Of a stretch of 64,000 nt of DNA, positions 2,820-52,567 are shown one piece after another. The stretch covers positions 1,056,001 through 1,120,000 of the forward strand of contig CAWJCS010000003.1 of NCBI GenBank assembly GCA_963841435.1. Reading direction: 5' to 3'. This stretch comes from an uncultured delta proteobacterium (lineage in GTDB: Bacteria > Myxococcota_A > Polyangia > Polyangiales > Polyangiaceae). The notes below the pieces were generated by a model. The model did no database searches. It was not told where the DNA came from and saw only the letters and a list, made by a program, of their open reading frames with translations. Numbering within the stretch: the first letter of the stretch is position 1; each line of letters begins with the position of its first letter. Position numbers and translations under genes: made by a program.

Positions 2820-4382
2820 GCACGCGCTACTACGACGCCATCGTGCTCGGCCGTTCGCTCGGCAGCCTCGCGACGGCTGCGCTGCTCGCCCGCCGCGATT
2901 TCCGCGTGCTCTTGCTCGGCAACGGGCAGCGACCCTCGAGCTACCGTTTCGACGGCCGCTGGCTCGGACGGCGCACGTTCTCGTTGCTCTTCGGCGCGTC
3001 GCCGGTCTGGCGGCGCATCCTCCACGAGCTGGCGCAGAGCCCGCAATTTCGCCGGCGCGTCACGCCGCTCGATCCCATGTTCGCCGTGCTCGCAGGCGAG
3101 CACCGGATCGAGCTGCCGCCCGACGTTCGAGCGCTTCGGTCGCGAGATCGATCGCGAATTCCCCGAGGTGCGCCAGGTGGTGGACGAGCTCTACCGCACG
3201 ATCGCCGACGTCAACGGCGCGACGGACGCTGCGTTCGAGCGCGATGCCGTCTGGCCCCCCGGCACGCTGTGGGAGCGCCTCGAGACGAGCCAGGCGGCGG
3301 CGGCGCTGCCCTTCGAGCGCGGCGAGCGCGCCCCCGAGCTTTTCGCCAAGTTCCCGAGCGGCCACCCCTTCCGAGAGATCGTCGCGATTCCGGCGCAGTT
3401 CGGCAGCCACCTCGCGGCGAGCCTGTCCGAGCTGCCCGCGCTGTCCCTCGCGCGCCTGCACGGCGCGTGGGCGCGTGGCGTGGTCGCGCTCAAGGGCGGC
3501 GAGCAAGAGCTTTCGGCGTTCCTCATCGAGCGCATCGAGGCGCACGGCGGGGTCTGCCTGCTCGATCGAAGGGCCCAGTCGCTCGTCGTGCGCAACGGTT
3601 CCGCCGCCGGCGTCGTGCTCGACGGCGACGACGAGGTCACGGGAGCGAGCGCCGTCATCACCGATCAGTGGGGCGAATCGCTCGCGGAGCTTTCGGGCGG
3701 CGACGGTGTGACGCGCGCCGCTCAGCGCGAATGGCCGCGCCTGACGCCGGAAACGGGACGGTTCATCGTGACGATGGTGGTGCGGCGCGAAGCCCTGCCC
3801 GAGCCGCTACCCGAGGAAGTGTTCATCGCGCCACCAGGCTCGCCGCGCGACCCGCGGCGCCCCGTGCTCCACCTGCAGAGCGTTCTCCCCGCACCGCGCG
3901 CCGACGGTGCTCCCGACGAGAACGAAGCACTGCTCGTCGCCGAGTGCCTCGTGCCCACGCGAGGCGCACTCACGCTGCTCGAGGCGCGGCGCGCCGTCGT
4001 CGAGGTGCTAAAGAGCGAGCTCGTGTTTCTCGACGACCATTTGCTGGTCCTGGACTCGCCGCACGACGGGCTGCCACTCGAAGATCGGACGACGGGCACG
4101 GTCCGGGAGATCGACCGGTTGCACCTCGTGGGAGCCGCGCCGGGGGCGGAGCCGATGGAGCGACAGTACGCCGTTGACCCGCCGGGCTATCGCGGCCTGT
4201 CGGGCGAGCCCCTCCGGGGCCCGATTCCCGGGACGTTCCTGGTCGGGCCGACGGTCTTGCCCGCGCTCGGTCAGGAAGGCGAGCTCATGGCAGCCTGGAG
4301 CGTCGCGCGTCTCATCACGCGACGTGACCGCACCCGTCAGCGCATGCGGCAAAAGCTCTGGTCCAAGCTCGAGACCACGTGA
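2816..4382 (+). CDS. Phytoene-dehydrogenase-like FAD/NAD(P) oxidoreductase, frameshifted near 3126 (probable sequencing error)
   Basis: GTG at 2816 overlaps the purN stop; N-terminus YDAIVLGRSLGSLATAALLARR; removing one T at 3126-3127 joins it to ORF 3168..4382 (PDVERFGREIDREFPEVRQVV). Confidence 0.7.
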
Positions 4383-4951
4383 GCACCTCGCCGCGCGTGA
4401 TCGCCGGCCGCTTCCACGGACGCCCGCTGCGCGTTCCGCGCGGTCTTGCCACTCGTCCCACCGCCGCCCGCGTTCGAAAATCGCTGTTCGACATCCTCGG
4501 CAACCTCGAGGGGGCGCGCGTGCTCGACCTGTACGCCGGTTCGGGAGCGCTCGCGATCGAAGCGCTGTCACACGGCGCGTCGTTCGCGGCCCTCGTCGAG
4601 CGCGACCGGCGAGCGCTCGAATGCATCACGCAGAACCTCTCGCTCGTCGGCGCCACCGCGATGACACGCGTGCTCGGCGTCCCCGCGGAGCGCGCCGTCG
4701 AGCGCCTGCGAGGCGGTGCCCCGTTCGACGTGGTGCTCTCCGACCCGCCCTGGGACGCCGTCGAGGCGGCCCTCGAGGTGGTCGGCGGGCTCGTGGCCGC
4801 AGGGCTCCTCGCCGAGCGTGGCGTCGTAACGCTCGAGCACCGGAAGGACGCTCGGCCGCTTGCCCCTCCGGGGCTCGCCGCGTACGATCGACGGACGTTC
4901 GGGGACGCGGGCATCACCTTCTTCAGGCTCGTCTCGCACCCCGACGAGTGA
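4379..4951 (+). CDS. rsmD: 16S rRNA m2G966 methyltransferase
   Basis: RVIAGRFHGRPL, TRPTAARVRKSLF, LDLYAGSGALAIEALS, DPPW. Confidence 0.92.
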   Translation: MSTSPRVIAGRFHGRPLRVPRGLATRPTAARVRKSLFDILGNLEGARVLDLYAGSGALAIEALSHGASFAALVERDRRALECITQNLSLVGATAMTRVLGVPAERAVERLRGGAPFDVVLSDPPWDAVEAALEVVGGLVAAGLLAERGVVTLEHRKDARPLAPPGLAAYDRRTFGDAGITFFRLVSHPDE

Positions 4952-5043
4952 CGCCCCCATCCGGCCCACTGTCCGGGACGCCGCCGTGTTAGCGCTTCCG
5001 GCGGCAGCGCCACCACCGGTATATTCTTTCACGCTCGCGAGCC

Positions 5044-5628
5044 ATGACCACGTCCCTCCCCCCTCCGAAGTCAGGTAGCAGCAAGCCGTTCGCGATCGCC
5101 GCCCTGCTGATGCTGTTGCTGATGGGCGGGCTCGTCTACGTGAAGCTTTCCGGCTCAGACGAACCGAAGCCTGAGCCGGCGCCGCCGCGTTCCGCACCGA
5201 AGCCGGTCATTGACCAGGTGATCCCACCGCCCCCGCCACCTCCGGAGCCCCCGCCTTCCGCATCGGCGTCGGCACCGGTGAAGAAGTCGGCGCCGAAGAA
5301 CGATACGGGCTGCTCCACGTGCGGCAACTGCCAGGGCACCGAAGCAGGCGGCTTCCGCGGCGCGATCGCCGGACGCGCGGCACTTGCCCAGCGCTGCTAC
5401 GAGAAGGCGCTCGGGCAGCAGGAGCAGCTCACGGGCAAGCTCACCGTGGGGGTCTGCGTCGGCGTGGGAGGCCAGGTCTGCTCGGCCCGCATCGAGAAAG
5501 ACTCGCTCGGCAGCCCCCTGGTTGCCCAGTGCGTGCTGAACCTCTACCGGTCCGTGACGTTCCCCTCCCCGAAAAACGGTTGCGTTCAGGCTGCCGTTCC
5601 GCTGAACTTCATCCCACAGAAGCTATGA
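5044..5628 (+). CDS. Membrane-anchored Pro-rich protein with AgmX/PglI (TonB-C-like) C-terminal domain
   Basis: N-terminal TM, poly-Pro linker, CYEKAL...GKLTV...V..C...F P P...VPLNF pattern typical of myxobacterial AgmX/PglI C-terminal domains. Confidence 0.7.
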   Translation: MTTSLPPPKSGSSKPFAIAALLMLLLMGGLVYVKLSGSDEPKPEPAPPRSAPKPVIDQVIPPPPPPPEPPPSASASAPVKKSAPKNDTGCSTCGNCQGTEAGGFRGAIAGRAALAQRCYEKALGQQEQLTGKLTVGVCVGVGGQVCSARIEKDSLGSPLVAQCVLNLYRSVTFPSPKNGCVQAAVPLNFIPQKL

Positions 5629-5861
5629 GCGCCTCCCACCGCGTTCAGACCAGGTTGGTCCTGTCGCTCTGCCTCATCGGCTCGGGGAGCCTGTTGTTTT
5701 CGGCTTGCGGCGAGGACGGCGAGTCGCCGCTCTGCCCCGAGGTCCGCCGCTACGACGTTGCGAAGGCGGGCGAGCGCAACAGCCCGGAGGCCGCCGAGGA
5801 TCGCGCGGCCGCCATCGACGCGGGCTGCATGACCGCGCTCATGGACGCGAGCACCGACTGA
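5625..5861 (+). CDS. Small lipoprotein
   Basis: ATGA overlap with the upstream stop; hydrophobic signal ending LFSAC. Confidence 0.6.
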   Translation: MSASHRVQTRLVLSLCLIGSGSLLFSACGEDGESPLCPEVRRYDVAKAGERNSPEAAEDRAAAIDAGCMTALMDASTD

Positions 5862-5886
5862 GCGCCCCACGGAGCGCGGGAGCCGG

Positions 5887-6714
5887 GTGACGCCCGACGA
5901 AGCAACAGGCGCGGCATCCCACGGCGTATTGCTCACCGTGGCTTACGACGGCGCGAGCCTCGCCGGGTTCGCGCGTCAACCCAACGTGCGGACCGTCGCC
6001 GGCGAGCTCGACGGCGCCGTGCACAGCGTGGCGCCGCGCGCCAGCCTGGTGCGGGGCGCGAGTCGTACCGATGCGGGCGTGCACGCACGCGCACAGCGCG
6101 TGGCATTCGACGTCGACCAGCTCATCCCGACGCGTGGCTGGGTGAAGGCGCTCAACGCTGCACTGCCCCAGGAGATCGCGGTCACTCGGGCGGCGCGCGT
6201 CGAGCCGGGCTACGAGCCGCGCTTCAGAGCCATCGCCAAGGTGTACCGCTATCGGATCTTGGAGAGCCACGTGCCCGATCCGTTTTTGCGCGGCCGGGCC
6301 TGGCGCATCGGCGAGAGGTTGAACCACGAGGCGATGCGCGAAGCGGCGGCACCACTGGTCGGTGAGCACGATTTCCGGGCCTTTCGCGCCGCGGGCGACG
6401 AACGCACGGACACGGTGCGTCGCATCGTTCGCATCGAGCTCGCACGGTCGCAAACCGCCGATCCTCCACGCTGCGAGGTGGTCGTCGAAGGCAACCGCTT
6501 CCTCTACCGAATGGTCCGCATCATCGTCGGATCGCTGGTCGATGTCGGTCTCGGTCGCCTCGACGCGTCCCGGCTCACGCTCGCGCTCGCAGCGGGCGAT
6601 CGCGCGCTCCTCGGGCGCACCGCGCCTCCCGACGGGCTTTGCCTCGACCGGATCACGCTCGACGACGACGGCAGCGACCCGTGGCCGATTGACGAAGCAC
6701 CGTCCCTCGCGTAG
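5887..6714 (+). CDS. truA: tRNA pseudouridine(38-40) synthase
   Basis: VAYDG, ASRTDAGVHA, GEHDFRAF, FLYRMVRIIVG, TAPPDGL. Confidence 0.95.
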   Translation: MTPDEATGAASHGVLLTVAYDGASLAGFARQPNVRTVAGELDGAVHSVAPRASLVRGASRTDAGVHARAQRVAFDVDQLIPTRGWVKALNAALPQEIAVTRAARVEPGYEPRFRAIAKVYRYRILESHVPDPFLRGRAWRIGERLNHEAMREAAAPLVGEHDFRAFRAAGDERTDTVRRIVRIELARSQTADPPRCEVVVEGNRFLYRMVRIIVGSLVDVGLGRLDASRLTLALAAGDRALLGRTAPPDGLCLDRITLDDDGSDPWPIDEAPSLA

Positions 6715-6728
6715 CGTCCCGGCCACTC

Positions 6729-8273
6729 GTGGGCTTCCGCCAGCGAATTCTCGAACGAAGTCGGAAAGCGTTGCTTGGGCCCGCCGTCATGCGGTGGGTC
6801 TCCGACGATCGCGTGATGCGTGCGGCCGAAGGCCTGCTCGACGCGCGAACGCGCGTGCAGGCCGCCTGGACGGTGCTGAAGAACGGCCACGCCCTGCCGA
6901 ACATCGACCCCGCGCTCGACGAGACGATCGGCGAGCCCGGACCCGAGAAACCCGCGCCGGAAGTCGCGAAGGCACGCGCCAACGGCAACGGCGCCGCCCA
7001 CCCGACCCGCGGCTCCGACGACATGCACGAGTCGCTCAAGGAGCGCAACACGCTCGCGAGCATCGGGGGCAAGGACATCTTCGAGAAGTGCCGCAAGTTC
7101 ATGGCGGCGGACAACGCGCGCAAGATGGGGATCTACCCCTTCTTCCGCCCGCTCGATCTCAACGACGGGCCCGAGGCCGTGATCGACGGCCGGCGCGTGG
7201 TCATGCTCGGCTCGAACAACTACCTCGGCCTGACGACGCACCCCAAGGTGCGTGAAGCCGCCAAGCTCGCGATCGATCGCTTCGGGACGAGCATGACCGG
7301 CTCGCGCCTCGTCAACGGCTCGATGAAGCTGCACGAGGAGTTCGAGGCCAAGCTCGCCGCGTGGCTTGGCAAGGAATCGGCGCTCGTGTTCACCACGGGC
7401 TACCAGGTGAACCTCGCCACCTGCTCGGCGTTGCTCAGCAACAAAGCGAGCGTCGCCGTCATCGATCGCAACGTCCACGCCTCGCTCTACGACGGCGCTC
7501 GGCTGGGCCAGGCCGCCGGCGCACGGCTCGTTCGCTACCGCCACAACGACCCAGAGTCACTCGATAAGACGCTCGAGAAGCTCGAGGCCGAGGAAGGTGC
7601 GCTCGTCATCACGGACGGCGTGTTCAGCGCGGAAGGCGAGATCGCCAAGGTCGACGAGATCGTTCGCGTCGTGAAGGCGCACGGCGCGCGGTTGCTCGTC
7701 GATGACGCGCACGCGCTCGGAGTGATCGGCCCCGGCGGCCGCGGCACTTCGCACAGCTTCGGGGTCTCCGATCAGGTCGACCTCATCGGCGGCACATTCT
7801 CGAAGTCGCTCGCCAGTATCGGCGGCTGGCTCGTCGGCGAGCGCAAGGTGCTCGACTACATCCGTCACTTCGCGCCTTCGTTCATGTTCGCGGCCGCCGC
7901 AGCGCCGCCCTGCGTGGCCGCCGCGATGGCCGCCTTCGAGACCATGCAGGAGGAGCCCTGGCGCATCGAGAAGCTCCGGGAAAACTTCACTTACATGCGC
8001 GACGAGCTCAAGAAGCTGGGCTTCGAGCTCGGCCACACGCAAACCGCCGTGATCCCGATCTACGTTCGCCAGGATCTTCGCACGATCATGATGTGGCGCG
8101 ACCTGCTCGAGGAGCACGGCATCTACACGAACCCCTTCATCTCGCCCGGCGTGCCGCCGAAGAGCGCGATGCTGCGCACTAGCTACATGGCGACGCACGA
8201 GCGTCCGCAGCTCGATCGCGCCCTCGAGGCGTTTCGCGTGGTCGGCAAGAAGTACGGTGTGATTTCGGGCTGA
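6729..8273 (+). CDS. spt: PLP-dependent alpha-oxoamine synthase, probably serine palmitoyltransferase, with a ~100-aa N-terminal extension
   Basis: YPFFRPL, GSNNYLGL, TGSRLVNG, HASLYDG, DDAH, GTFSKS (PLP Lys); motifs resemble Spt more than BioF/Kbl; clustered with bCerS/CerR-like genes. Confidence 0.8.
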   Translation: MGFRQRILERSRKALLGPAVMRWVSDDRVMRAAEGLLDARTRVQAAWTVLKNGHALPNIDPALDETIGEPGPEKPAPEVAKARANGNGAAHPTRGSDDMHESLKERNTLASIGGKDIFEKCRKFMAADNARKMGIYPFFRPLDLNDGPEAVIDGRRVVMLGSNNYLGLTTHPKVREAAKLAIDRFGTSMTGSRLVNGSMKLHEEFEAKLAAWLGKESALVFTTGYQVNLATCSALLSNKASVAVIDRNVHASLYDGARLGQAAGARLVRYRHNDPESLDKTLEKLEAEEGALVITDGVFSAEGEIAKVDEIVRVVKAHGARLLVDDAHALGVIGPGGRGTSHSFGVSDQVDLIGGTFSKSLASIGGWLVGERKVLDYIRHFAPSFMFAAAAAPPCVAAAMAAFETMQEEPWRIEKLRENFTYMRDELKKLGFELGHTQTAVIPIYVRQDLRTIMMWRDLLEEHGIYTNPFISPGVPPKSAMLRTSYMATHERPQLDRALEAFRVVGKKYGVISG

Positions 8274-8295
8274 GCCTCGGAGTCGGAGGGAGACC

Positions 8296-9030
8296 ATGGT
8301 GCGCGGCGCGCTGGTCGGGCTGTTGGGTGCGGCGCTCCTCGCCGGCTGCCAAGCGACGCTGCCGAGCTGCGACGCCGAGGTCGAGGCACCCCACGTCGAT
8401 TACGCGCTCGTCGAGTACCGCCTGAACGAGGAGACGGGCGCGCGGTGTACGAGCTCGAGCGCGAAAAGAGCCTTTCCACCTACGTCGCTGCCAAGGAGCT
8501 CGGAGCCGAAGTCGTGTTCGTCTTCAACCACCTCGAGACGGCGAACGTCACGGCAGGCTCGAGCAAGCTCGCGACCAGCAAGGTCTACCAGTCGGACGAG
8601 CACGGAGCGCGCGGCGCGCCACTTTCGCTCGACGACCAAACCCGCTCCGCATTCGTCGCGTCCACGCGCGAGGCCGCCGCCAAGTCCGTCGAGCCCGGGC
8701 GCGTCGTCGCCTTGAGCGCGGTGCTCGACTGTACGGCGATCGCCACGAGCACGGGCGAGAGCATCTGGTTTTACCGACGAACCGTCGCGAGACCGACCGA
8801 GGCGAAGCAGGGCCTGCGGCTGCTCTTCGGACGAAAGCCGGGCGGCGACTGGACACCCGCGGCGCCGGTCGAGCCCGCCGCCATCGACCAGACGGCGCCG
8901 CCCGAGGGCACGTTCGACTCCGAGCCCCGGCGACGCCTACGCCGAGGAACGGCTCGAGCTCGTTCGCAAGGGGGCGGAGCACTTCGTCGGCGCGTTCCGG
9001 AGCGGAGCGCTCCAGGAGGAGGGAGGGTGA
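8296..9030 (+). CDS. Hypothetical lipoprotein, two apparent frameshifts (~8440 and ~8913)
   Basis: GGAGG RBS and LLAGC lipobox; continues in the 8445 frame; removing one T at 8913-8914 gives EGTSTPSPGDAYAEERLELVRKGAEHFVGAFRSGALQEEGG* ending at 9030. Confidence 0.6.
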
Positions 9031-9809
9031 CCCGCGTCGCTGCCGTCGCGGCCGCGGCATGCCTCGCCGCCATGATGACGGGCGCGCCTGCCCATGCGCA
9101 GAGCGCACCGGCACCGGGTGCAGAGCTGCCGCCACTGCCACCGCCTCCGCCTCCGCCTCCGCCTCCGCCGCCCCCCGCCGCCGAGAGCCCCGGCGATTCG
9201 CCGCCGCCCGCCGCTCTGCCCAATGCCGGGCTCCAGGCTACGCCCGCTCCCCCCGTCGACGGCGCCGCTTTCCCGGTGACGCTGTCGCCGTCGGCCCCCG
9301 ACCTTGCCTGGTACCTGCCTCCCGAAGGCGAGCGCTTCGTGCCACCCCAGGCCCCCGAGCGCCGCTGGCTGGCTCACTTCGTCGCCGCCGCGCGCTTTCG
9401 CGCCATGTACATGCTCGACGCGCAGCAAGTGGAGGTCGAAGCATCGGCACGCGCCGGCATCGAGGCGATCGCCGGCGTGCTCGGCGTGGTCACGGTCGAC
9501 GGCGATCCGGTGCCGCTCGCTGGCATCGAGGCACTCGGCTACTTCGGCGTCGACGCGTTCGACGAGAACGGCTTTTTGGGTCAGGTGCTCTTGCCGAGCA
9601 TCGAGCTTTCGCTCGCTTTCGATCGCCGCTGGGTCATGCGCGCAGGCAGCGGCATCTCCGGTTTCCGTCTCACGAAGTGCCTGGGGTCGATGAGCCTGGT
9701 CGGGCAGCTGCGTATCCCGATTATCGACGTCTGGGCCGTGCCCGATAGGGACTTTCGCGACCCCCTGGTGTCGCTCGGCACGATGCTCGAGCTCGGCATG
9801 GCGCTCTGA
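9027..9809 (+). CDS. Secreted Pro-rich hypothetical protein, possibly outer-membrane beta-strand-rich
   Basis: GTG at 9027 after a GGAGG-rich RBS; signal peptide ending AHA-Q; poly-Pro linker; amphipathic C-terminus. Confidence 0.6.
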   Translation: MTRVAAVAAAACLAAMMTGAPAHAQSAPAPGAELPPLPPPPPPPPPPPPPAAESPGDSPPPAALPNAGLQATPAPPVDGAAFPVTLSPSAPDLAWYLPPEGERFVPPQAPERRWLAHFVAAARFRAMYMLDAQQVEVEASARAGIEAIAGVLGVVTVDGDPVPLAGIEALGYFGVDAFDENGFLGQVLLPSIELSLAFDRRWVMRAGSGISGFRLTKCLGSMSLVGQLRIPIIDVWAVPDRDFRDPLVSLGTMLELGMAL

Positions 9810-39556: not shown

Positions 39557-40168
39557 ATGATGAGCCTGTTCGACCGCATTCTCGGCAACCCGTGGGTGTA
39601 CGAGTACGTGCGGCCGCTCGCGGCGGGCGGGCTCGACTACGCCCACGCCTATCGCCGCCTCAGGTGCGGCCCTTCGGCGCACGTGCTCGACCTCGGCTGC
39701 GGCACGGGCGACGCCCTGCGCTACCTCGATACCTACGAGGCTTACCTCGGGATCGACACCGACGAGCGCGCGATCCGCTACGCAGCCTCACGCTGGCAGG
39801 GTCGCGCGGGCACGCGCTTCGAGTGCCGCCTCTGCACGCCCGACGACGTGCGGGCGTTTGCGCCCACCCACGCGGCGCTGATTGGGCTCTTGCACCACCT
39901 CGACGACGGTGACGCGGTGTCGATGCTGAAGATGCTTCGCGAGTCACCACGTCTCGAGCGCGCCGTGACGCTCGATACGGTGTACCTCCGCAGGCACCCC
40001 TACAACAACCTGCTCACGCGGCTCGACCGTGGGCGCTTCGGTCGCTCCGAGCCCGCCTACGTCGCACTGGCCGAGCGGGCGGGGCTCCGGGTGGTCGAGC
40101 ACTACATCGTGAAGAGCCACCCGACGCGCGGGCTCGTGAAGTTCTGCGTGCTCGTGCTCGAGCCCTGA
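39557..40168 (+). CDS. Class I SAM methyltransferase
   Basis: VLDLGCGTG, YLGID, LLHHLDD, DRGRF. Confidence 0.85.
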   Translation: MMSLFDRILGNPWVYEYVRPLAAGGLDYAHAYRRLRCGPSAHVLDLGCGTGDALRYLDTYEAYLGIDTDERAIRYAASRWQGRAGTRFECRLCTPDDVRAFAPTHAALIGLLHHLDDGDAVSMLKMLRESPRLERAVTLDTVYLRRHPYNNLLTRLDRGRFGRSEPAYVALAERAGLRVVEHYIVKSHPTRGLVKFCVLVLEP

Positions 40169-44044: not shown

Positions 44045-44653
44045 ATGGCCGAGCTCGAGCGACGGATCCGAGACCTGGTCGCTGGCTCCGACCTCGAGGA
44101 GCGCCTGAGCCTCGTCCCGCCCTCCGCAATGCTACGCGGGTTGTATTTTCGCAACACCGTCGCGGTGCTGCGAAACGCGGGAGCACTGGCAAGCTACGAG
44201 GCCCTCTATTCGGAGAGTCACTCGGCCGTGCGCTGGTACCCGCTCTCGGACTTCCTCGAACGCGCCGCGGTCGCAGCGGCGCTGCTCAAGGGCCCGGACG
44301 GGATCCACGAAGGGTTACGCGAGATCGGGCGCCGCAACGTGCTCGCTTTTTCCGAGAGCCTCATCGGTCGGACGCTGCTGCGCATCCTGCCGAACGATCC
44401 CGTCAGCCTGCTCAAACAGGCGTGCGCTGGGCGGCGGCAAAGCTGCCGCTATGGGCGCTGGGAGGTCACGTTTCCGGAGCCGGGCAAGGCGGTGATGGCG
44501 ATGTTCGAGGAGTATCTCTGGATCGAGTCGAACGTGCTCGGTGCGGCCGAGGGCACGTTCGCGGCGGTCGGTCGTGACGTGCACGTGACAGTGGAGCTGG
44601 ACTCGAAATTCAAGGGGCGCCACATCCTCACGTGGTCTGACGAGGGGCGATGA
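44045..44653 (+). CDS. DUF2378 / TIGR02265 myxobacterial family protein
   Basis: RGLYF, WYPLSDFL, GLREIGRR...FSESLIGRTL, YG...V, GAAEG. Confidence 0.75.
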   Translation: MAELERRIRDLVAGSDLEERLSLVPPSAMLRGLYFRNTVAVLRNAGALASYEALYSESHSAVRWYPLSDFLERAAVAAALLKGPDGIHEGLREIGRRNVLAFSESLIGRTLLRILPNDPVSLLKQACAGRRQSCRYGRWEVTFPEPGKAVMAMFEEYLWIESNVLGAAEGTFAAVGRDVHVTVELDSKFKGRHILTWSDEGR

Positions 44654-44902
44654 CATCGCCAGCGGGCAACCCAATCGTGGTATGAGCGGCGACGAGCACG
44701 TCGGGGGTCACTTAACATTGCTGTCCGCCCGACCGTCGAGAGCCTGCGCCACGTGCTTGATCGTAAAAAACTGGCTTTTGCCGTAGCAAGCGACGCGCCG
44801 CCGGCGCGCTCGAGCCCCCCGGACGAAACGCTCGGGGCTGGTGCGTCCCGCCGCGAATCAGGCATCGTCGAACGCGGGCGGGCCGACGCCGACGGGCTGA
44901 CC

Positions 44903-46645
44903 GTGCCAAAGGGCGCGGTCATCGACTCGACGCTCAGCCCCGAATCAGCGGCGGCGCGCATCGTCAACGCGCTCGTGGCGCGCGGTGTGGAGACGTACTT
45001 CGGGATCCCGGGCGGGCCCATCTGTCCGCTCGTCGAGGCGCTACGGTTGCACCCCGCTGCGCGCTTCATCGAGTCGCGCCACGAAAGTCACGCGGCATTC
45101 GCGGCAGCAGCGTACTTTCGGGCGAGCGGACGCGTCGCGGGGGTCGTCGTCACGGCGGGACCGGGGGTCACGAACGCCGTCACGGGCGTCGCGTCCGCGT
45201 TCCTCGAACGCATCCCGTTGCTGGTCCTCGCGGGCGACGTGGCCTGGGCCACCCACGGCGGGCGGCTCGCGCAGGATTCGGGACCGGAAGGCATCGACAT
45301 CGAGCAGCTACTCGGCTCGGTAACGCGCGCCCGTGTGCGGGTTACGAACGGCCGCAGCGCCGTGAGTCAGGTCCTCTGTGCCCTGGATGCGGCGACGAGC
45401 CCGCTGTCCCCCGGTCCGGCCCTGCTCGTCCTCCCCATCGATCGCGCCACGGAAATGGCGCCCGTCTGTCGGATCATCCCTTCGACCCCGCCCCTCGCCG
45501 GCGTCCCGGATCTCGAACCGGTGATGGCGACCGCGCGGCTGCTCGCGGAAGCGGAGCGCCCCCTCTTGGTTCTCGGTGGCGCCTGCCTCTCGCACGCGGG
45601 CTGGGTTCGCCAGCTCGTCGACATGCTCAACGTCCCCTTCGTCACGACGCCGCGGGCCAAGGGTGTCGTGAGCGAAGAACACCCCCGCTCTCTGCGCAAC
45701 GGCGGCATGGCCGCGTCGCTCTGGGCCCGGCGCTACACCGCGAAGCCCGTCGACGCGGCGCTCGTGCTCGGTAGCGACCTCGACGATACCTCCGTCGGCG
45801 CGACGCCCTACGTGGGCGCGGGCGGGCGCCTCATTCACGTCGACCTCGACCCGCGGGTCTTCAACCGAAACTTGCCGACGACGCTCGGCATCACGGCAGA
45901 CCTCGCGACGTTCGCGCGGGAGCTCTACCAGGTGGTATCGGGGCTCGGCTCGAAGAACCCGCGCACGAGCTCACTGATGCGAGAGGCGCGCGCGGTGTCA
46001 CCCTATGACGAAGCAGAGTTCGAGACCGACGGCGGCAGTCTGATCCCGCCGCATCGTGCCATCGCCGACCTCGCCCGAGCCGTCGAGGACGACGCGCGTT
46101 TCGTCACCGACATCGGCGAGCACATGCTGTTCGCTCTGCACTACCTCACGGCGCGCGGTCCGCTCGATTTCAACATCCAGCTCAATCTCGGCAGCATGGG
46201 CAGCGGCATCGCGGGCGCGCTGGGCCTCGCGCTCGCCGATCCCACGCGCCAGGTCGTGTGCATCGCGGGTGACGGCGGCATGCAGATGTCGGGCATGGAG
46301 ATCCTCACCTGCAAAAAGCTCCGGCTGCCGGTGCTCTACGCCGTGTTCAACGACTCCCGCTACAACATGGTGCACCACGGCATGCGGCAGATCTTCGGGC
46401 AGACGGGCGACCACGGCATGCCCCAGGTCGATTTCGCGGCGTGGGCGGCGTCCATGGGCGTCCCCGCTCGGACCATCCACGCCGCCGGGGAGATCGATCG
46501 CGAGCTCTTGGCCGAGCTCTCGCGTCACGGAGGCCCGGTCCTGCTCGACATCCGCATCGACCCCGAGGTGCGCCTGCGAGCCGGCGGTCGCGTCGAGGCC
46601 CTGCAGCACATGTCCATGCTGTCGAAAGCCGCGGGGAGCGCGTGA
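44903..46645 (+). CDS. ThDP-dependent enzyme (AHAS-like, candidate acyloin synthase)
   Basis: FGIPGG, RHE catalytic Glu, TAGPGVTN, GSMG, GDGG...N ThDP motif; start uncertain (ORF open from 44753). Confidence 0.88.
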   Translation: MPKGAVIDSTLSPESAAARIVNALVARGVETYFGIPGGPICPLVEALRLHPAARFIESRHESHAAFAAAAYFRASGRVAGVVVTAGPGVTNAVTGVASAFLERIPLLVLAGDVAWATHGGRLAQDSGPEGIDIEQLLGSVTRARVRVTNGRSAVSQVLCALDAATSPLSPGPALLVLPIDRATEMAPVCRIIPSTPPLAGVPDLEPVMATARLLAEAERPLLVLGGACLSHAGWVRQLVDMLNVPFVTTPRAKGVVSEEHPRSLRNGGMAASLWARRYTAKPVDAALVLGSDLDDTSVGATPYVGAGGRLIHVDLDPRVFNRNLPTTLGITADLATFARELYQVVSGLGSKNPRTSSLMREARAVSPYDEAEFETDGGSLIPPHRAIADLARAVEDDARFVTDIGEHMLFALHYLTARGPLDFNIQLNLGSMGSGIAGALGLALADPTRQVVCIAGDGGMQMSGMEILTCKKLRLPVLYAVFNDSRYNMVHHGMRQIFGQTGDHGMPQVDFAAWAASMGVPARTIHAAGEIDRELLAELSRHGGPVLLDIRIDPEVRLRAGGRVEALQHMSMLSKAAGSA

Positions 46646-47724
46646 TGAACGCCGCCATCGCGGGGATCGGCGCCTGGTACCCGGAGCGGGTGCGCACGAA
46701 CGACGAGTGGCCCGCCGACTTCGCCGCGGCCTCCCGCAGCGCCGGAGACCGGCTTTTCAACGACATTCCGCGGTCGCCCGACGACGCGCTCCGGGTCACG
46801 GACCGCTACCTCGCGGCGGAAGCGCATGATCCCTTCCTCGGCGCGAAGGAGCGTCGCGTCGCCGACGACGCGACGAGCTCGGTCGATGCCGAGGTGCTCG
46901 CCGCGCGACGCGCGCTCGACGATGCCGGCGTTTCCGTCCGGGAGATCGACGTGGTCATCTCGTACTCGGTCGTTCCCGATCGCGTGACGCCGGCGTCGGC
47001 GTGCGCCGTCGCGAACCGCCTGGGAGTGCCGGGCGCGCTCGCATTCTCGATGGATGCTGCCTGCGCGACGGCGCTCGTCCAGATCCAGAACGCCAAAGCG
47101 CTCGTCGAGTCCGGCCAGGCGAAAGCGGTCCTGCTCACGCAATCGCACCTCTTGCTCCGCACCTTTCCCATGCTGCACCCGGCGGCTCCGGGGCTCGGCG
47201 ACGCTGCAACGGCGCTCGTCGTGAAGCGCGACGGTCGCTTCCCCATCCTCGGCGTTCTGGGTCGAACTCATGGCGAGTACTACCCGGCCGTGACCTGGGT
47301 GCGCGGCTCTACGCCCGAGGAGGACACGCCCTGGTGGCTCGCCGGGGGGCCGCTACGCGTAGGCAGCCGCGATCGAGAGCAAGCCAAGGTGCTGCAGAGA
47401 GACACCGTAGCCTACGGGGTCGAGACGCTGCGGGAGGTCGCCCGGGAGGCCCGCGTCGACCTCGAGAGGATCGACGTGCTCGCGAGCGTCCAGCCCCGGG
47501 GCTGGGTCCCCGTGGCCATGGCCGAGGTGCTGGGGCTCGACCCGGGGGTCGTCCCGAGCGTTTACGAGACCCGCGGCCACCTCGGTGCGTGCGGCCCGAT
47601 CGCGAACTTGGAGCTCTGGTACCGAACCCGGCGGACCGCGGGGTCTCGCGTCGGGGCCCTGTATGCTCAGGGCGCCGGTTTCACGCGGGCCGCCGTTCTT
47701 CTCGACCTCGCCTCAAGCGAGTGA
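46645..47724 (+). CDS. 3-oxoacyl-ACP synthase III-like (thiolase-fold) enzyme with an atypical active site
   Basis: TGATG coupling to the ThDP gene; MDAACATAL (Cys), GDAATA, SVQPRG, GHLGACGP, QGAGF. Confidence 0.85.
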   Translation: MNAAIAGIGAWYPERVRTNDEWPADFAAASRSAGDRLFNDIPRSPDDALRVTDRYLAAEAHDPFLGAKERRVADDATSSVDAEVLAARRALDDAGVSVREIDVVISYSVVPDRVTPASACAVANRLGVPGALAFSMDAACATALVQIQNAKALVESGQAKAVLLTQSHLLLRTFPMLHPAAPGLGDAATALVVKRDGRFPILGVLGRTHGEYYPAVTWVRGSTPEEDTPWWLAGGPLRVGSRDREQAKVLQRDTVAYGVETLREVAREARVDLERIDVLASVQPRGWVPVAMAEVLGLDPGVVPSVYETRGHLGACGPIANLELWYRTRRTAGSRVGALYAQGAGFTRAAVLLDLASSE

Positions 47725-47797
47725 CGACGAAACGGGGCCAGGGCGCTAACCTGGGCGCCCCGCGCTCCTTCCGAGCCGCGCGAGCATTCGTCGAGCC

Positions 47798-49354
47798 ATG
47801 GTCGCCCCGATCGACACCTTCGTGTACTTCACGACCGAGGAGGCCTTCCAAAGGCTCGGCGCGCCGTTCACGTTGCGTAGCGAGCTCGGCGGCGGACGCG
47901 TGGAGACGCGCTTGCTCGAGCGCGAGGTACCGGCCGGCGTAGCGCTGGCGCGGTCCACCGTCGGGTCCTCGCCACTCGGTGTCGTGGCGACGTCGGAACC
48001 GCAGGCTCTCGAGGCGATCGGGGCGGGCGCCGACGAGGCCGTCGTGCTGGCGGAGCCGCATCCCGCGGCCATCACGGCGTTCGTCGATCGCGTGCGCGTG
48101 CGTGCGTGGAACCGTCGGGAACGCGAGCAGCGAACGCAGGACTTGAGCCAGGCCGAACGCCTCGCGACGCTCGGAACGCTCGTCGCCGGAGTCGGGCACG
48201 AGCTCAACAATTCCCTCGCGATGATTGCGCTCGGCTTCGACCTCTTGCGCGACGCCCTCTTGCCCGACCTCAACGTGATCTGGACGGCACGCGGGCGCAT
48301 TCTCGGCTCGGGCGAGCTGACGCCAGACGCCGCGAAGGAGCTCGCCGGCGCGCTGCGCGGCGACGGCGTCGCCGTCACCCAGATCCTGGACGATCTCAGC
48401 GTCTCGACCAAAGCCGTGACGCAGGTCGTGCGCGATCTCCGGACGTTCGGCGGAGGCAACGTCGTCGAGGGGCCGTCCCTCTTCCAGCCTCGCGAGGTGA
48501 TTCAGCAGGCCTTGCGCCTGGTGCGCCGCGAGCTGCCCCCGAAGACCGTGCTCGAAGAGGACTACGACGACGACCTTCCCACGCTCTACCTGCCGCGAAA
48601 CCGACTGGCACAGGTGCTCACGAACCTGCTCGTGAACGCCGGGCAGGCGCTGCGCGAGGTCACCCGCGAGATCCATCGCGTGCGCGTCGGAGCGCGCCGG
48701 GACGAGCAATCGCTCGCCATCTCCGTCACGGACACGGGCCCGGGCATCGACGACGAAGCCCTGGAACGCATATTCGATCCCTTCTTCACGACCAAGCGCG
48801 AGGGCCAGGGTCTCGGGCTTTCGATCTCTCGCTCGATCATCCAGCAGATGGGCGGCGACCTCGTCGCGTCGTTGACGTTGGGCGAAGGAGCGAGCTTCGT
48901 GTGCTTCCTGCCACTGCCGAACGATGCCGATCTGCAGAAGGCAAAGCATTCGCTTCGGGGCACGTGGCTTGGGGGCCCGAGCGAAGCACGTCGGTCGGTG
49001 CTCATCATCGACGACGACGAGCGTGTGCTACGGGCCACGGCGCGTGCCCTGAGCGAGCAGTGCAAGGTGCTCGTGGCTCGCGACGGCGAAGAGGCACGCC
49101 AACTCTTGAAATCCGGCTCCCACGTTAACGCGATCGTGATGGAGCTCGTCTTGCCGGAGCTCGACGCCATCGCCTTTTGCGACTGGCTCGTCACGTTCGA
49201 CGCCGACCTCGCCCGCCGCGTCGTGATCGCCACCGCCGCCCACGAGCGCCCCCAGCACCGCGCCTTCCTGGAGGAGCGGGCAGCGCTCGTGCTGCACAAG
49301 CCCTTCCACCGCGAGGACTTGCTGGCCGCCGTCGCGCGCGTCACCGGCGGCTGA
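47798..49354 (+). CDS. Cytoplasmic hybrid histidine kinase with an atypical receiver
   Basis: GHELNN, QVLTNLLVNA, DTGPGI, FDPFFTTK, GLGL; receiver LIIDDD...IVMELVLP...KPF. Confidence 0.88.
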   Translation: MVAPIDTFVYFTTEEAFQRLGAPFTLRSELGGGRVETRLLEREVPAGVALARSTVGSSPLGVVATSEPQALEAIGAGADEAVVLAEPHPAAITAFVDRVRVRAWNRREREQRTQDLSQAERLATLGTLVAGVGHELNNSLAMIALGFDLLRDALLPDLNVIWTARGRILGSGELTPDAAKELAGALRGDGVAVTQILDDLSVSTKAVTQVVRDLRTFGGGNVVEGPSLFQPREVIQQALRLVRRELPPKTVLEEDYDDDLPTLYLPRNRLAQVLTNLLVNAGQALREVTREIHRVRVGARRDEQSLAISVTDTGPGIDDEALERIFDPFFTTKREGQGLGLSISRSIIQQMGGDLVASLTLGEGASFVCFLPLPNDADLQKAKHSLRGTWLGGPSEARRSVLIIDDDERVLRATARALSEQCKVLVARDGEEARQLLKSGSHVNAIVMELVLPELDAIAFCDWLVTFDADLARRVVIATAAHERPQHRAFLEERAALVLHKPFHREDLLAAVARVTGG

Positions 49355-49397
49355 CGACGCCGACGATGCCGCGTGCGGCACCCGCGTCCACCCGAAC

Positions 49398-50082
49398 CTA
49401 CTTCGCGCTCGGTGCGCACGCTTGGCGGGCGCGACCCTCTTGCAACGAGCCCGGCGACAGCCGAGAAAGCTCGCTCTGGGCCTCGGCGGTGCGACCCATG
49501 CCGCAGAGCGCATGGATCTTCGCGGCGACGCGCTCTTGCACGAGAGTCCCATGGGGAAACTCTCGCTCGTGCTCGGCGAGCAGGCGAAGCGCTCCCGCGA
49601 AGCGACCGGCGTGGAGCTCCGTCTCCGCACGCGACAGGATCGCGACTTCCTCGGCAAGCCGATTCGGACGGGCGGCGCGGAGCGACGGTGCGCTCGGGCT
49701 CGGGAGCGGCAGGAGACGGAGCGTGCTCCGGGAGCGCCTGCGCGGCCGGAGCCGGCGGCTCCTCGACGACCGGCGCGACCGGTGGGGGCGCCGTCGCGAC
49801 GCTCGGCTGCGCGGCCGCGGGCACGGGCCGCGTCGGCCGTTCGCGCGTTCGCTCGAACAGCACGGCACCGCCCACGGCGAGGCCGACGACGATCAGCGAA
49901 ATCGTGGACCACCCGACGCCGGCGCTCGGCGCGGCCGGGGCCGGTGCCCCCGTGGGGAGGTCGCCGGCGGCGATGCGCCCGCTGAGCTCACGGAACACGC
50001 GCTCGCGATCCGCGACCGTCGGACGCAGTCCCTTTCGACCCGCTCTGACGAGCGCTGCTGCCTCGGGACCGAGCTCGTTCAC
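49398..50082 (-). CDS. Single-TM anti-sigma-like protein with a Pro-rich linker and C-terminal TPR-like helices, frameshift at ~49663
   Basis: Coupled to the ECF stop; removing one T at 49663-49664 gives PRRPSDRLAEEVAILSRAE...HEREFPHGTLVQER...ALC. Confidence 0.7.
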
Positions 50083-50657
50083 GGGCGACCTCCGGCGTCA
50101 CGGCTGGCGCTGCGCGCGAGCTCCTCCCCGAAGGCGATCCTTGCGGCCCGCAGTCGCGAGTAAGCGGTATTGAGCGGGATCTCGAGCGCCTCCGCAATCT
50201 CGGGAACGGTCATCTCCTCCAGCTCGGCCAGCATGAAGACCTCCCGCTTCGGAAAGTCGATCTTCTCGAGCAGGGCGAACAGCACCTTGATCTCGTCGCT
50301 TTGCTCCGTGAGATCGTGTGGGGTCGGCGGCGCACGGTGTCGCACCCCTGCTTCGACCGCCAAGGCCTCACCGCCGGCGTGCCTGCTGCGCTGCGACCGA
50401 TGGTGATCGCTCACGGTGCGCCGGACGACGCCGTAGATCCAGCTTCGGAGCGAGCTCGGTTGCCTGAGCGTTTCGACCTTCGCGTGGATCACCAAGAATA
50501 TCTCCTGAACGACATCATCCATCGACGACGCGCTCACACCGAGGCGCCGTGCCGAGGCCCAAACGAAATCGAAGTGCTGTTGGTAGATGGCTTCGAACGT
50601 TGGGACTTCTTCGATTGCCACGACCCGGGCGTGCTCCACCTGGTTCGGCGGCCCCAT
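50079..50657 (-). CDS. ECF RNA polymerase sigma factor
   Basis: FEAIYQQHFDFVW, DDVVQEIFLV, LRSWIYGV, EIAEALEIPLNTAYSRLRAAR. Confidence 0.92.
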   Translation of the reverse strand: MGPPNQVEHARVVAIEEVPTFEAIYQQHFDFVWASARRLGVSASSMDDVVQEIFLVIHAKVETLRQPSSLRSWIYGVVRRTVSDHHRSQRSRHAGGEALAVEAGVRHRAPPTPHDLTEQSDEIKVLFALLEKIDFPKREVFMLAELEEMTVPEIAEALEIPLNTAYSRLRAARIAFGEELARSASRDAGGRP

Positions 50658-50727
50658 GGCACGAGCCGCAGCGCTCCGTCCTAACATCGTCGGTCCCAAA
50701 GGCAGTGGCGCCACGCGCGGGTGTCCG

Positions 50728-51810
50728 TCAAAAAATCCACTCCGAGGCGAGCCCGAACGACCCCCAGACCCGCCCAAGTTGACGAATTTCCCCGAAGTCT
50801 TCGATGATCAGGCGCGGCCGGGAGGTTTCCAATCCGACCGAAGCCGTGCCGACCAAGGCGAGCCAATCGCGTAGGTAAACGTGCGACACCGCACCGCTGC
50901 CGACCACGACCGAAACCCGTTGCGCCGAGCGGGCAGCGACCGTGGCTCCGACGCCACGAGCAGTAAAGCGATCGAGCCCCAAGCCGACGCACGGCCCGAT
51001 CTCGAGCCACGACGCTTGCCACTGACGACACGCCGAGAGCTCCGCCGTCATACGGCCGACGTGCGCGCCAACATCGGGGACCTCGCGCGACCAAAGGGTT
51101 TCCGCCTTGAAGATTCGACCCAGCGCGACGAAGCGCCAAGCCTCGAAGCGCACGCCGAGACCCGCGCCGAGCCCGAACCCGGCCTTCGGCAGCGGACCCA
51201 CGTTGACCGTTCCGAACGGTGCGCGAAGGATGGCCTGGAGCCTGCCCCCATCGGGTACTTCACGCTTCGTCTTGGTGTCGGCACGCTCGTTCTTGCTCGG
51301 AACGACGTCGGGCGCCGTCGCGGCGCGCGGAGGCTCCTCGGGGGCGACGGTTTCGTCCTTCCCCGGCTCGTTGGCATGCTCCGAGGAGGATGCGGCCTCC
51401 GCTTCCTTCGTTGACGCCCCTTTCCCCGGCTCGCTCCGAAGCAACAAGCCGAGGGCAACGGCAGCAGCCCCTGCGAGGTCCGCGCACGAGTCGGAATCGA
51501 TCACGCGCGTTCGAACGCTGCTCCCGTCGCGCACGGTCAGCGTGAGACGATAGCGATCGTCTTTCTTTACCACCTGCCCCTCGGCATGAAGCTCGCCTGC
51601 GGCCCGCAGCGACTCGCCGGCGAGCGAGCGAATGCGCTCACGCACGGCATCCTGCTGGGGACAGACCGGCGGCGCGTCCCAGGCAAGGTCCAGTGGCCCC
51701 TGGGCCATGACGCGCGCAGGCAGAAGCACCGCCGCGAGCCCCCACGCGACGATGCCGAGCAAGCGCCCGTCGCGGCTGCGTCGGTCAGGGAGCGGCACGG
51801 ATCGAAACAT
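50728..51810 (-). CDS. Secreted / outer-membrane protein with a probable C-terminal beta-barrel
   Basis: Signal peptide, WDAPPVCP...DSCADLA N-domain, Pro/charged linker, amphipathic Gly-rich strands ending in WIF; start uncertain. Confidence 0.65.
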   Translation of the reverse strand: MFRSVPLPDRRSRDGRLLGIVAWGLAAVLLPARVMAQGPLDLAWDAPPVCPQQDAVRERIRSLAGESLRAAGELHAEGQVVKKDDRYRLTLTVRDGSSVRTRVIDSDSCADLAGAAAVALGLLLRSEPGKGASTKEAEAASSSEHANEPGKDETVAPEEPPRAATAPDVVPSKNERADTKTKREVPDGGRLQAILRAPFGTVNVGPLPKAGFGLGAGLGVRFEAWRFVALGRIFKAETLWSREVPDVGAHVGRMTAELSACRQWQASWLEIGPCVGLGLDRFTARGVGATVAARSAQRVSVVVGSGAVSHVYLRDWLALVGTASVGLETSRPRLIIEDFGEIRQLGRVWGSFGLASEWIF

Positions 51811-52567
51811 CGTCCACGTAAACGGTGGTGGCGGGCGGCGTGAGCGCATTCGCCAGGTTCCCGACGTACCAAAGTTCCGGCTCGGGAACGTCCGTGATGA
51901 TCCCCCGTGCTTCGAGCACCAGCTGCCCGTCCTGGTAGAGCGCGACCTCACCGCTCGCGTCCAGCGAGCGCAACCAGTGAAATTCGAGGTGAAACCACGA
52001 GCCGATCGGGATTTCGGGTGCGGTCAGCGACGCGCGGACCATCGAGCGCAAGAAGTCGAACACGTAGAGGGCGAGCCCACCGCCGTCCGTGTTTCCGAGC
52101 GAGACGTCCCAGAGCTTTTGCTGGGGGCTCCGAAAGTGCATGAGGTTCCAGTTGTCCGCGTTCGTCGCCGCCGCAGGCACGTAGTACCAGGCGCCGTAGA
52201 CACCGTCGTCGGGCAGCGCGCCCTCTCGCACGCAACGCGCCTGCAGGCCGTCGAGCTCAACGTCGGAGGTGACCGAGAAGGCGGCCGCGCGTTTCCCGGA
52301 ATGGACGGGCGCGGTGACGATGTCGAAGCCGGCTCCCGGATTGGCGACGCAAAAGCCATTGACGCGGGCGTAGTCACAGAAGCCGCCCTCGAAGCCGGTC
52401 GTCCAGGGAACGGGCACCGGATCGGTGGCTGGTGCCGCGACATCGGCGCCAGCGTCCGGAACGCCCAGGGCGGACCCACAGTTCCACTTTCCGACCGTAA
52501 GGTCCGGGTCGCAGGCCGCCGAGAGGCAGGCGAGCAGCAAGCCCAAGGGGCACCCGATAACCCGCAC
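51785..52567 (-). CDS. Lipoprotein with a jelly-roll (polysaccharide lyase/LamG-like) domain
   Basis: LSAAC signal; WTTGFEGG, PVHSGKRA, YGAWYYVP, WFHLEFHW, GEVALYQDG, VYVDDV. Confidence 0.6.
   Translation of the reverse strand: MRVIGCPLGLLLACLSAACDPDLTVGKWNCGSALGVPDAGADVAAPATDPVPVPWTTGFEGGFCDYARVNGFCVANPGAGFDIVTAPVHSGKRAAAFSVTSDVELDGLQARCVREGALPDDGVYGAWYYVPAAATNADNWNLMHFRSPQQKLWDVSLGNTDGGGLALYVFDFLRSMVRASLTAPEIPIGSWFHLEFHWLRSLDASGEVALYQDGQLVLEARGIITDVPEPELWYVGNLANALTPPATTVYVDDVSIRAAP

Follow-up and report, generated by a model that had tools for sequence, protein, structure and literature searches.

A conserved four-gene module of uncultured myxobacteria joins a putative acyloin-lactone enzyme pair to a DUF2378 protein of predicted H-NOX-like fold and a soluble histidine kinase

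In this study we describe a module of four genes in a 64,000-nucleotide stretch of DNA from an uncultured delta proteobacterium of the family Polyangiaceae (GenBank assembly GCA_963841435.1, contig CAWJCS010000003.1, positions 1,056,001 to 1,120,000 of the forward strand), the whole of which is referred to here as the window. The genes encode a DUF2378 protein, a thiamine diphosphate (ThDP)-dependent enzyme, an atypical enzyme resembling β-ketoacyl-acyl carrier protein (ACP) synthase III (KAS III) and a soluble histidine kinase. They form a conserved module of uncultured Polyangia-type myxobacteria. By analogy with the enzymes CybE and CybF, we propose, with a probability of roughly one half, that the ThDP and KAS III-like enzymes make an acyloin-derived lactone and that the DUF2378 protein and the kinase are a dedicated sensing arm, the ligand of which would most likely be the product of the enzymes themselves.

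The linkage of the four genes was surveyed by tblastn of the window's proteins on 57 related loci, which were taken from contigs of one genome per species and all come from Polyangiaceae, Sandaracinaceae or otherwise myxobacterial metagenome-assembled genomes. In 45 of the 47 loci with at least 1.9 kb of upstream sequence, the KAS gene is immediately preceded by the ThDP gene on the same strand, and in 36 of 48 loci the ThDP stop and the KAS start overlap by 4 or 1 nt; in the window, a single base is shared by the ThDP TGA (46643-46645) and the KAS III-like ATG (46645-46647). This arrangement is far beyond chance. The downstream kinase has an orthologue (36-59% identity over nearly the full length) that adjoins the pair in 44 of 56 KAS loci, and a DUF2378 gene (35-58% identity) is also present in 44 of the 56. 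When the survey is restricted to the 37 loci whose sequence extends for at least 5 kb upstream and at least 3.4 kb downstream of the KAS gene (the full-flank loci), all four genes are found in 31, the enzyme pair only in five (L003, L006, L009, L027 and L028), and KAS and DUF2378 only in one (L054). Furthermore, the 40 four-gene loci display five gene orders (in 19, 12, 6, 2 and 1 loci), which means that rearrangement has not separated the four genes. Of the remaining flanking gene families, none recurs in more than 6 of the 57 loci.

An earlier reading of the window, made from the DNA letters and their translations (the sequence-only reading), had suggested that the enzyme pair might be tied to the sensor kinases on either side of it and had set conservation of that linkage as a test. 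For the downstream kinase the linkage is indeed kept, together with DUF2378 and in all of the gene orders described above. The divergent multi-transmembrane (multi-TM) kinase on the other side, which had been considered as a second partner, is not conserved with the pair: it has no orthologue near the pair in the other loci, and its sole matches there (27-34% identity) fall on the orthologue of the downstream kinase. It is thus a neighbour only, and lies outside the conserved module.

The DUF2378 protein, which had been treated as a bystander, now appears to be the likeliest sensor in the module. It is encoded by a single copy in the genome. An AlphaFold model built from a 32-sequence alignment was of high quality by its own scores (predicted local distance difference test, pLDDT, 94.5; predicted template-modelling score, pTM, 0.89), and a Foldseek comparison of this model with the PDB gave 44 matches at E<=1e-3, nearly all of which were stand-alone H-NOX proteins or the H-NOX domain of the soluble guanylate cyclase β subunit; the best match was 6bde (E 2.5e-7), with template-modelling scores of 0.67-0.75 over about 187 columns. 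An H-NOX-like fold is therefore confidently predicted. Sequence comparisons gave no such relationship, as Pfam returned nothing but DUF2378 even at E<=10 (the protein is not a member of PF07700), a profile search of the PDB with the DUF2378 alignment produced chance-level matches only, and an hhalign comparison with six true myxobacterial H-NOX (PF07700) proteins was insignificant (probability 0.15%). These six proteins share an invariant His104 and a Y-x-S-x-R motif. In the alignment with them, which is weak but topologically sensible, neither the proximal haem histidine nor the YxSxR motif is present in DUF2378, and the latter faces M153, E155 and Y157. The residues that are invariant in DUF2378 (R130, R131, Q132, W139, E156, Y157 and others) differ from those of H-NOX. 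Given the absence of the haem motif and the presence of these other invariant residues, haem binding by DUF2378 is unlikely, and the protein probably binds a different small ligand. Of 151 Myxococcota genomes sampled, 20 contain true H-NOX (PF07700) genes, and this genome is not among the 20; within the phylum, DUF2378 and H-NOX proper coexist as distinct lineages that share one fold. A literature search for DUF2378, TIGR02265 and PF09536 yielded an incidental mention only, in which the family is said to have no known function (PMC9257966, available text).

Does DUF2378 belong with the kinase or with the enzymes? In 19 of the 40 four-gene loci, including the window, it is encoded just upstream of the ThDP gene and on the same strand, as might be expected of a biosynthetic helper, that is, a cyclase, chaperone or carrier similar to NzsI/CqsB2 that handles an unstable acyloin or its acylated form, with the kinase as no more than a regulator. 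There is a precedent for such a protein in carbazole assembly, which, according to the available text of PMC7466098, needs a small cyclase to stabilize an unstable intermediate. However, in 15 loci DUF2378 is directly upstream of the kinase gene rather than of the enzyme genes, on the same strand and 9-98 nt away, the commonest arrangement among these being one in which both genes converge on the enzyme operon; in L036 and L044 the DUF2378 and kinase genes are 24 nt apart. The two are jointly present or jointly absent in 36 of the 37 full-flank loci. DUF2378 has been lost along with the kinase in five loci, and one pair-only genome (96% complete) contains no relative of the window's DUF2378 anywhere, so the enzymes must be able to work without it. 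In addition, the predicted fold matches sensor proteins, and CybE and CybF, which with a coenzyme A (CoA) ligase suffice to form the furanolide core in vitro, need no such helper (PMC12395478, available text). We therefore regard a helper role as improbable, and consider it likely that DUF2378 and the kinase work together.

The features of the kinase are consistent with such a partnership. From its N-terminus, the protein consists of a receiver (REC)-like domain, a dimerization and histidine phosphotransfer domain (with H134 and a long insert), a catalytic and ATP-binding (CA) domain and a C-terminal receiver. Among 32 aligned orthologues the H-box LGTLVAGVxHEINNPL, which includes H134, is conserved and the CA domain is normal. 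A Kyte-Doolittle scan gave no convincing TM segment, and neither Pfam nor a model of the N-terminal region revealed a recognized sensor domain. A kinase that receives its input from a separate protein would be expected to lack a recognizable ligand-binding input domain, as this one does. The N-terminal 110 residues are predicted to form an alternating β/α domain (pLDDT 94.3) for which Foldseek found nothing in the PDB at E<=1e-3; the best matches were all receiver domains, and these weak (E >= 1.4e-3, template-modelling score about 0.55) but uniform matches suggest that the domain is receiver-like. At the other end of the protein, a glutamate (in VMELVLPE, residues ~445-452; region 49202-49213) occupies the phospho-acceptor position, which we take to be that of the canonical CheY pattern. 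Glutamate is found here in the window's kinase and in most orthologues, and aspartate in 5 of the 32 (L032, L033, L039, L043 and L050). Thus, the protein that had been called a hybrid kinase does carry H134, a CA domain and a receiver, but its receiver has Glu and not Asp as acceptor and looks more like a phosphomimetic pseudo-receiver than like the receiver of a true hybrid kinase.

Prediction of a complex between DUF2378 and residues 1-390 of the kinase gave a median score of 0.45, compared with 0.01 for the best of three controls; the runs share at least 85% of their contacts, and partner pLDDT is at least 86. In the calibration of this procedure, the mark was reached by 116 of 157 solved complexes and by 2 of 215 mismatched pairs, and at 0.60 or under it was reached by only 18 of the 157 solved complexes, plus both of the mismatches. 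At its score, the prediction supports the pairing of DUF2378 with the kinase weakly.

Turning to the enzymes, the ThDP protein contains the N, central and C TPP_enzyme domains of Pfam, and its translation includes the ThDP-binding motif GDG...ND (GDGGMQ...FND). The first residue of the Pfam N domain is residue 66, and this leaves uncertain which of two GTG codons begins the gene. Against TIGR00118, the model for the large subunit of acetohydroxyacid synthase (AHAS), the enzyme scores 263.6 bits for a cut-off of 538.35, and its score is under every AHAS cut-off. A genuine ilvB (743.7 bits) directly adjoins ilvN on another contig (contig 6) of the same genome, and since these genes are located elsewhere, the window's enzyme is not the housekeeping acetolactate synthase; it is not an AHAS. 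Its closest solved relatives are BbmA (E 4e-71) and CsmA (E 4.5e-69; PDB 8x3x and 8x3z), over residues 66-606, and AHAS is more distant (E 2e-56); a literature search on BbmA and CsmA, by name and PDB code, found no function for them. By analogy, we propose that this protein is a putative acyloin (α-hydroxy-β-keto acid) synthase of the CybE/NzsH kind.

The KAS III-like enzyme, also encoded once in the genome, is similarly remote from its primary-metabolic namesake. It scores 94.9 bits against PRK09352 (cut-off 249) and 92.9 bits with the fabH model (cut-off 292). The FabH cysteine is matched by Cys140, which is invariant in 15 of 15 sequences, but in an alignment with the genome's own canonical FabH, which bears the HQAN and GNTSSAS motifs, the FabH histidine corresponds to V282 and the FabH asparagine to an invariant H312. 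Thus, both the Cys-His-Asn triad and a score above the FabH family cut-off are lacking. The family is further characterized by N-terminal and central insertions, and by the invariant motifs LTQSHL, HPAAPGLGD, QPRGW, GHLGACG and YAQGAGFTR. We propose that the enzyme is a putative acyl-transferring, C-C-forming lactone synthase, analogous to CybF and NzsJ.

It might be argued that the pair is nothing more than an acetolactate synthase isozyme and a FabH-type initiator that lie beside signalling genes by accident, and the best NCBIfam names are in fact acetolactate synthase large subunit and β-ketoacyl-ACP synthase III. However, both scores are far under the curated cut-offs, the genome holds a true ilvB/ilvN and a canonical FabH, the catalytic His and Asn of FabH are replaced, and the distribution is patchy, with an orthologue in only 4 of 401 sampled genomes of the phylum, this genome included. 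A role in primary metabolism is therefore essentially excluded. The pair is instead, as the sequence-only reading had held, a secondary-metabolism cassette of the type that combines a ThDP acyloin synthase with a KAS III-like enzyme, and very probably it makes an acyloin-derived secondary metabolite.

The distribution of the module is patchy, like that of accessory systems. An exhaustive search for the KAS III-like enzyme over 1.84 billion representatives gave 52 clusters at E<=1e-30 and 480 at E<=1e-10, and a FastTree phylogeny of 177 KAS rows groups the window's proteins into a 78-row clade (support 99). A second large clade, of relatives that are about 30% identical, is separate from the first, and its members often adjoin ThDP genes too (L061, L062, L064, L065 and L068). 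For example, the distant locus L068 (G285:C116:32910-45974, ~3706-8639) has DUF2378, ThDP, KAS and kinase genes in the same order as the window, at 29-34% identity. As its KAS sits in the other major clade, the four-gene design either predates the window's clade or arose twice. Bare ThDP and KAS pairs are also carried on plasmids of the cyanobacteria Calothrix brevissima NIES-22 (L073, plasmid2, 6052-9065) and Gloeothece verrucosa PCC 7822 (L075, 6220-10235); these pairs are 25-28% identical to the window's proteins, stand nearest to second-clade representatives, and could possibly be cryptic minimal furanolide-type cassettes. In Gloeothece an O-methyltransferase gene follows the pair. In Calothrix a 218-aa protein is encoded upstream, which we considered as a counterpart of DUF2378 and rejected, as it is not DUF2378-like. 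From the separate clades and the cyanobacterial plasmid pairs, it follows that the two-gene cassette is old, widespread and deeply split, and the pair in the window belongs to a myxobacterial branch of it for which we found no description in the literature. An 11.5-Mb genome of the same family (G230, contig 1) carries, besides an orthologous four-gene module (L072), another ThDP and KAS pair that is distantly related (L061). Pairwise distances of the four proteins correlate across 37 loci (r = 0.84-0.91), which fits co-inheritance but is confounded by species history, as shared history would give the same correlation.

How might the module work? We suggest that the ThDP enzyme would join two 2-oxo acids into an α-hydroxy-β-keto acid (acyloin), which the translationally coupled KAS III-like enzyme would acylate, by means of its retained cysteine, with a thioester from general metabolism. 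The latter enzyme would then close the ring of a small butenolide- or furanolide-type lactone, following CybE and CybF in cyanobacterin biosynthesis. DUF2378, as a haem-free protein of H-NOX fold, would bind a small hydrophobic ligand and control the soluble kinase, as in the H-NOX/HnoK systems, and the ligand sensed would most likely be the module's own product. With regard to the acyl donor, no CoA ligase gene is conserved at the module among the 57 loci, and a search with PF00221 for aromatic ammonia-lyases gave no match in the genome, which is 95% complete. An ordinary acyl-CoA or acyl-ACP is therefore the more likely donor, and an alkyl-substituted butenolide or related lactone a more likely product than a classical tri-aryl furanolide.

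Several observations weigh against this proposal. Given the missing CoA ligase and ammonia-lyase, the cinnamoyl-CoA or coumaroyl-CoA donor of known furanolides is not evident, and because the nearest named cyanobacterial pairs are so distant in sequence, the chemistry may differ from furanolide formation. The pair-only loci, which branch from inside the module clade at a minimum of four positions in the tree, imply that the enzymes do not need the kinase or DUF2378. The weakness of the complex prediction must also be counted here, as must the fact that the module is without a response regulator bearing an output domain and that the acceptor residue of the kinase receiver is Glu. Finally, the same linkage would be expected of a sensor pair that did no more than regulate a metabolite cluster and answered to some other cue.

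The last of these points is the basis of a competing explanation, in which the enzymes produce an antibiotic or allelochemical that resembles the enhygrolides or furanolides, and DUF2378 and the kinase switch its production on in response not to the product but to a different cue, for instance redox state, a gas, or a signal from prey or competitors. Regulators are commonly clustered with biosynthetic genes, and the persistence of the pair without sensor genes in five loci is in keeping with this idea. So are the available parts of two reports, one in which the known furanolides are bioactive metabolites and not signals (PMC12395478) and one in which the Pseudomonas quinolone 4-hydroxy-2-heptylquinoline (HHQ) upregulated a DUF2378 gene in two myxobacteria (PMC9257966). 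However, the module includes no transcription factor as an output, DUF2378 lacks the haem motif found in gas-sensing H-NOX proteins, and the four genes move as a unit through their five orders with no conserved tailoring, export or resistance gene, which is an unusual pattern for such a cluster. We consider this explanation possible but rather unlikely, and prefer the proposal that the pair makes a lactone and that DUF2378 and the kinase sense it. Within that proposal the identity of the ligand is the most doubtful part, and it is only tentatively that we equate it with the module's product. A still bolder version would see the module as a complete and portable circuit for cell-cell (or self) signalling that represents a new class, in which the pair makes a butenolide-type autoinducer out of common 2-oxo acids and an acyl thioester, and DUF2378 is a haem-free cytoplasmic receptor that switches the kinase once ligand is bound; this we think unlikely as matters stand.

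The coordinates of the genes are given in Table 1. Every gene feature named in the sequence-only reading was found in its place, and so was the absence of an AHAS small subunit, an ACP and a CoA ligase: as the four genes on one strand fully occupy the interval 44045-49354, none of these can be inside it. The stop of the KAS III-like gene is separated from the start of the kinase gene by 73 nt. The G+C content of the region is about 69%. A scan for promoters and terminators was uninformative, as it returned 0 promoters and 5 terminator-like sites (2.7 +/- 1.8 expected), all of them intragenic. In the divergent kinase, a Kyte-Doolittle scan marks five hydrophobic segments within residues 1-320.

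Table 1. Genes of the module and the adjacent divergent kinase, in window coordinates.
Feature	Coordinates	Strand	Supporting matches
DUF2378/TIGR02265 protein, 202 aa	44045..44653	+	PF09536 E 1.6e-13, TIGR02265 E 2e-16
ThDP-dependent enzyme, 630 aa (GTG 44753) or ~580 aa (GTG 44903)	44753..46645	+	three TPP_enzyme domains
Atypical KAS III-like enzyme, 359 aa	46645..47724	+	ACP_syn_III + ACP_syn_III_C
Soluble histidine kinase, 518 aa	47798..49354	+	HATPase_c + Response_reg
Divergent multi-TM hybrid histidine kinase, 738 aa	41203..43419	-	HisKA, HATPase_c, REC (Pfam)

Some further genes surround the module. An open reading frame (ORF) of 266 aa (49373-50173, + strand) begins 19 nt past the kinase stop and has neither a Pfam match nor a relative in the 57 loci; because the DNA is so rich in G+C, it may not be a gene. 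Beyond it, a gene for an extracytoplasmic function (ECF) sigma factor (50079-50777, - strand) overlaps the start of a 407-aa ORF (50728-51951, - strand) that has no Pfam match and possibly encodes an anti-sigma factor. L036 is the sole other locus with an ECF sigma factor (49% identical) and a weak relative of the 407-aa ORF near the module. Upstream of the divergent kinase there is a gene for a small S-adenosylmethionine-dependent methyltransferase (Methyltransf_25/12; 39557-40168, + strand), which is not conserved with the module.

What, then, is new in this module? The enzyme pair is of a known kind, and its bare form in myxobacteria has already been published (PMC8777810, available text). 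A literature search found no description of a ThDP/KAS III-like pair that is conservedly coupled to a DUF2378 or H-NOX-fold protein and a soluble kinase and, as far as that search found, this coupling is new. Pairs of this type are the minimal engine of furanolide and carbazole chemistry and have so far been studied for the bioactive compounds that they yield; here, in dozens of uncultured myxobacteria, an engine of this type is tied to a kinase and a protein of H-NOX fold. Were the product itself the ligand, the module would represent a new architecture of autoinducer, receptor and kinase, DUF2378 would acquire a function, and the reach of the H-NOX fold would extend from gas sensing to metabolite sensing. 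Should the circuit exist in the bolder form given above, the DUF2378 family would have its first ligand, and myxobacteria would gain an endogenous small-molecule autoinducer system. As just four genes are involved, the idea is directly testable by heterologous expression.

The closest chemical counterparts of the pair are CybE and CybF. In the available text of PMC12395478, CybE joins two 2-oxo acids into an acyloin acid, and CybF carries out an O-acylation with coumaroyl-CoA, a C-C closure of the Morita-Baylis-Hillman type and a hydride shift. The window resembles this system in that a ThDP gene is directly followed by a KAS III-like gene and the active-site cysteine is kept, and it differs from it in that the module has no CoA ligase and the genome no detected ammonia-lyase. 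Closer to home, two co-localized cybE/cybF homologues, with the rest of the operon missing, are described in the marine myxobacteria Plesiocystis pacifica and Enhygromyxa salina and have been proposed, without genetic proof, to act in (deoxy)enhygrolide formation (PMC8777810, available text); the window shares with these the bare pair that lacks the remainder of the cyb operon. Its KAS clade is nevertheless distinct from that of the named cyanobacterial pairs, and the available portions of both papers (PMC12395478; PMC8777810) make no mention of linkage to DUF2378 or a kinase.

A second comparison is with carbazole assembly by NzsH, NzsJ and the cyclase NzsI (CqsB3, B1 and B2), for which a ThDP enzyme, a KAS III-like enzyme and a small scaffold-like cyclase are needed (PMC7466098, available text). 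As there, the window combines a putative ThDP acyloin synthase with a KAS III-like enzyme of the kind that alkylates or acylates the acyloin. Unlike there, no NzsI-type cyclase, ACP or second KAS III is conserved beside the pair, as judged by a survey of neighbouring gene families in the 57 loci in which NzsI was not searched for by sequence, and the sole conserved small protein has a predicted H-NOX fold. Taken together, these accounts (PMC12395478; PMC8777810; PMC7466098, each in its available text) make the chemical analogy drawn in the sequence-only reading between the window's pair and CybE/CybF or NzsH/NzsJ a sound one.

On the sensing side, the module can be set beside two groups of signalling systems. 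The first is H-NOX/HnoK of Shewanella and Vibrio, in which stand-alone sensors are paired with histidine kinases in nitric oxide signalling. Here too, a stand-alone protein of about 200 aa with a predicted H-NOX fold is encoded beside a soluble kinase that itself lacks a sensor domain, although DUF2378 is not a PF07700 protein, is without the proximal His and YxSxR motif, and is linked to a putative metabolite synthase. The second group comprises signal synthases encoded next to their receptors, namely CqsA/CqsS and LqsA/LqsS for α-hydroxyketones, AfsA/ArpA for butyrolactones, and PpyS/PluR and DarABC/PauR, in which the synthases are KAS III-like. The synthase in the window is a ThDP enzyme rather than a pyridoxal phosphate enzyme or AfsA, and where those systems use a membrane kinase, a LuxR solo or a TetR-family protein as receptor, the putative receptor here is an H-NOX-fold protein with a soluble kinase. 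Like all of these systems, however, the module places a small-molecule synthase beside a putative sensor, and both KAS III-like signal synthases and lactone or hydroxyketone chemistry have precedents among them.

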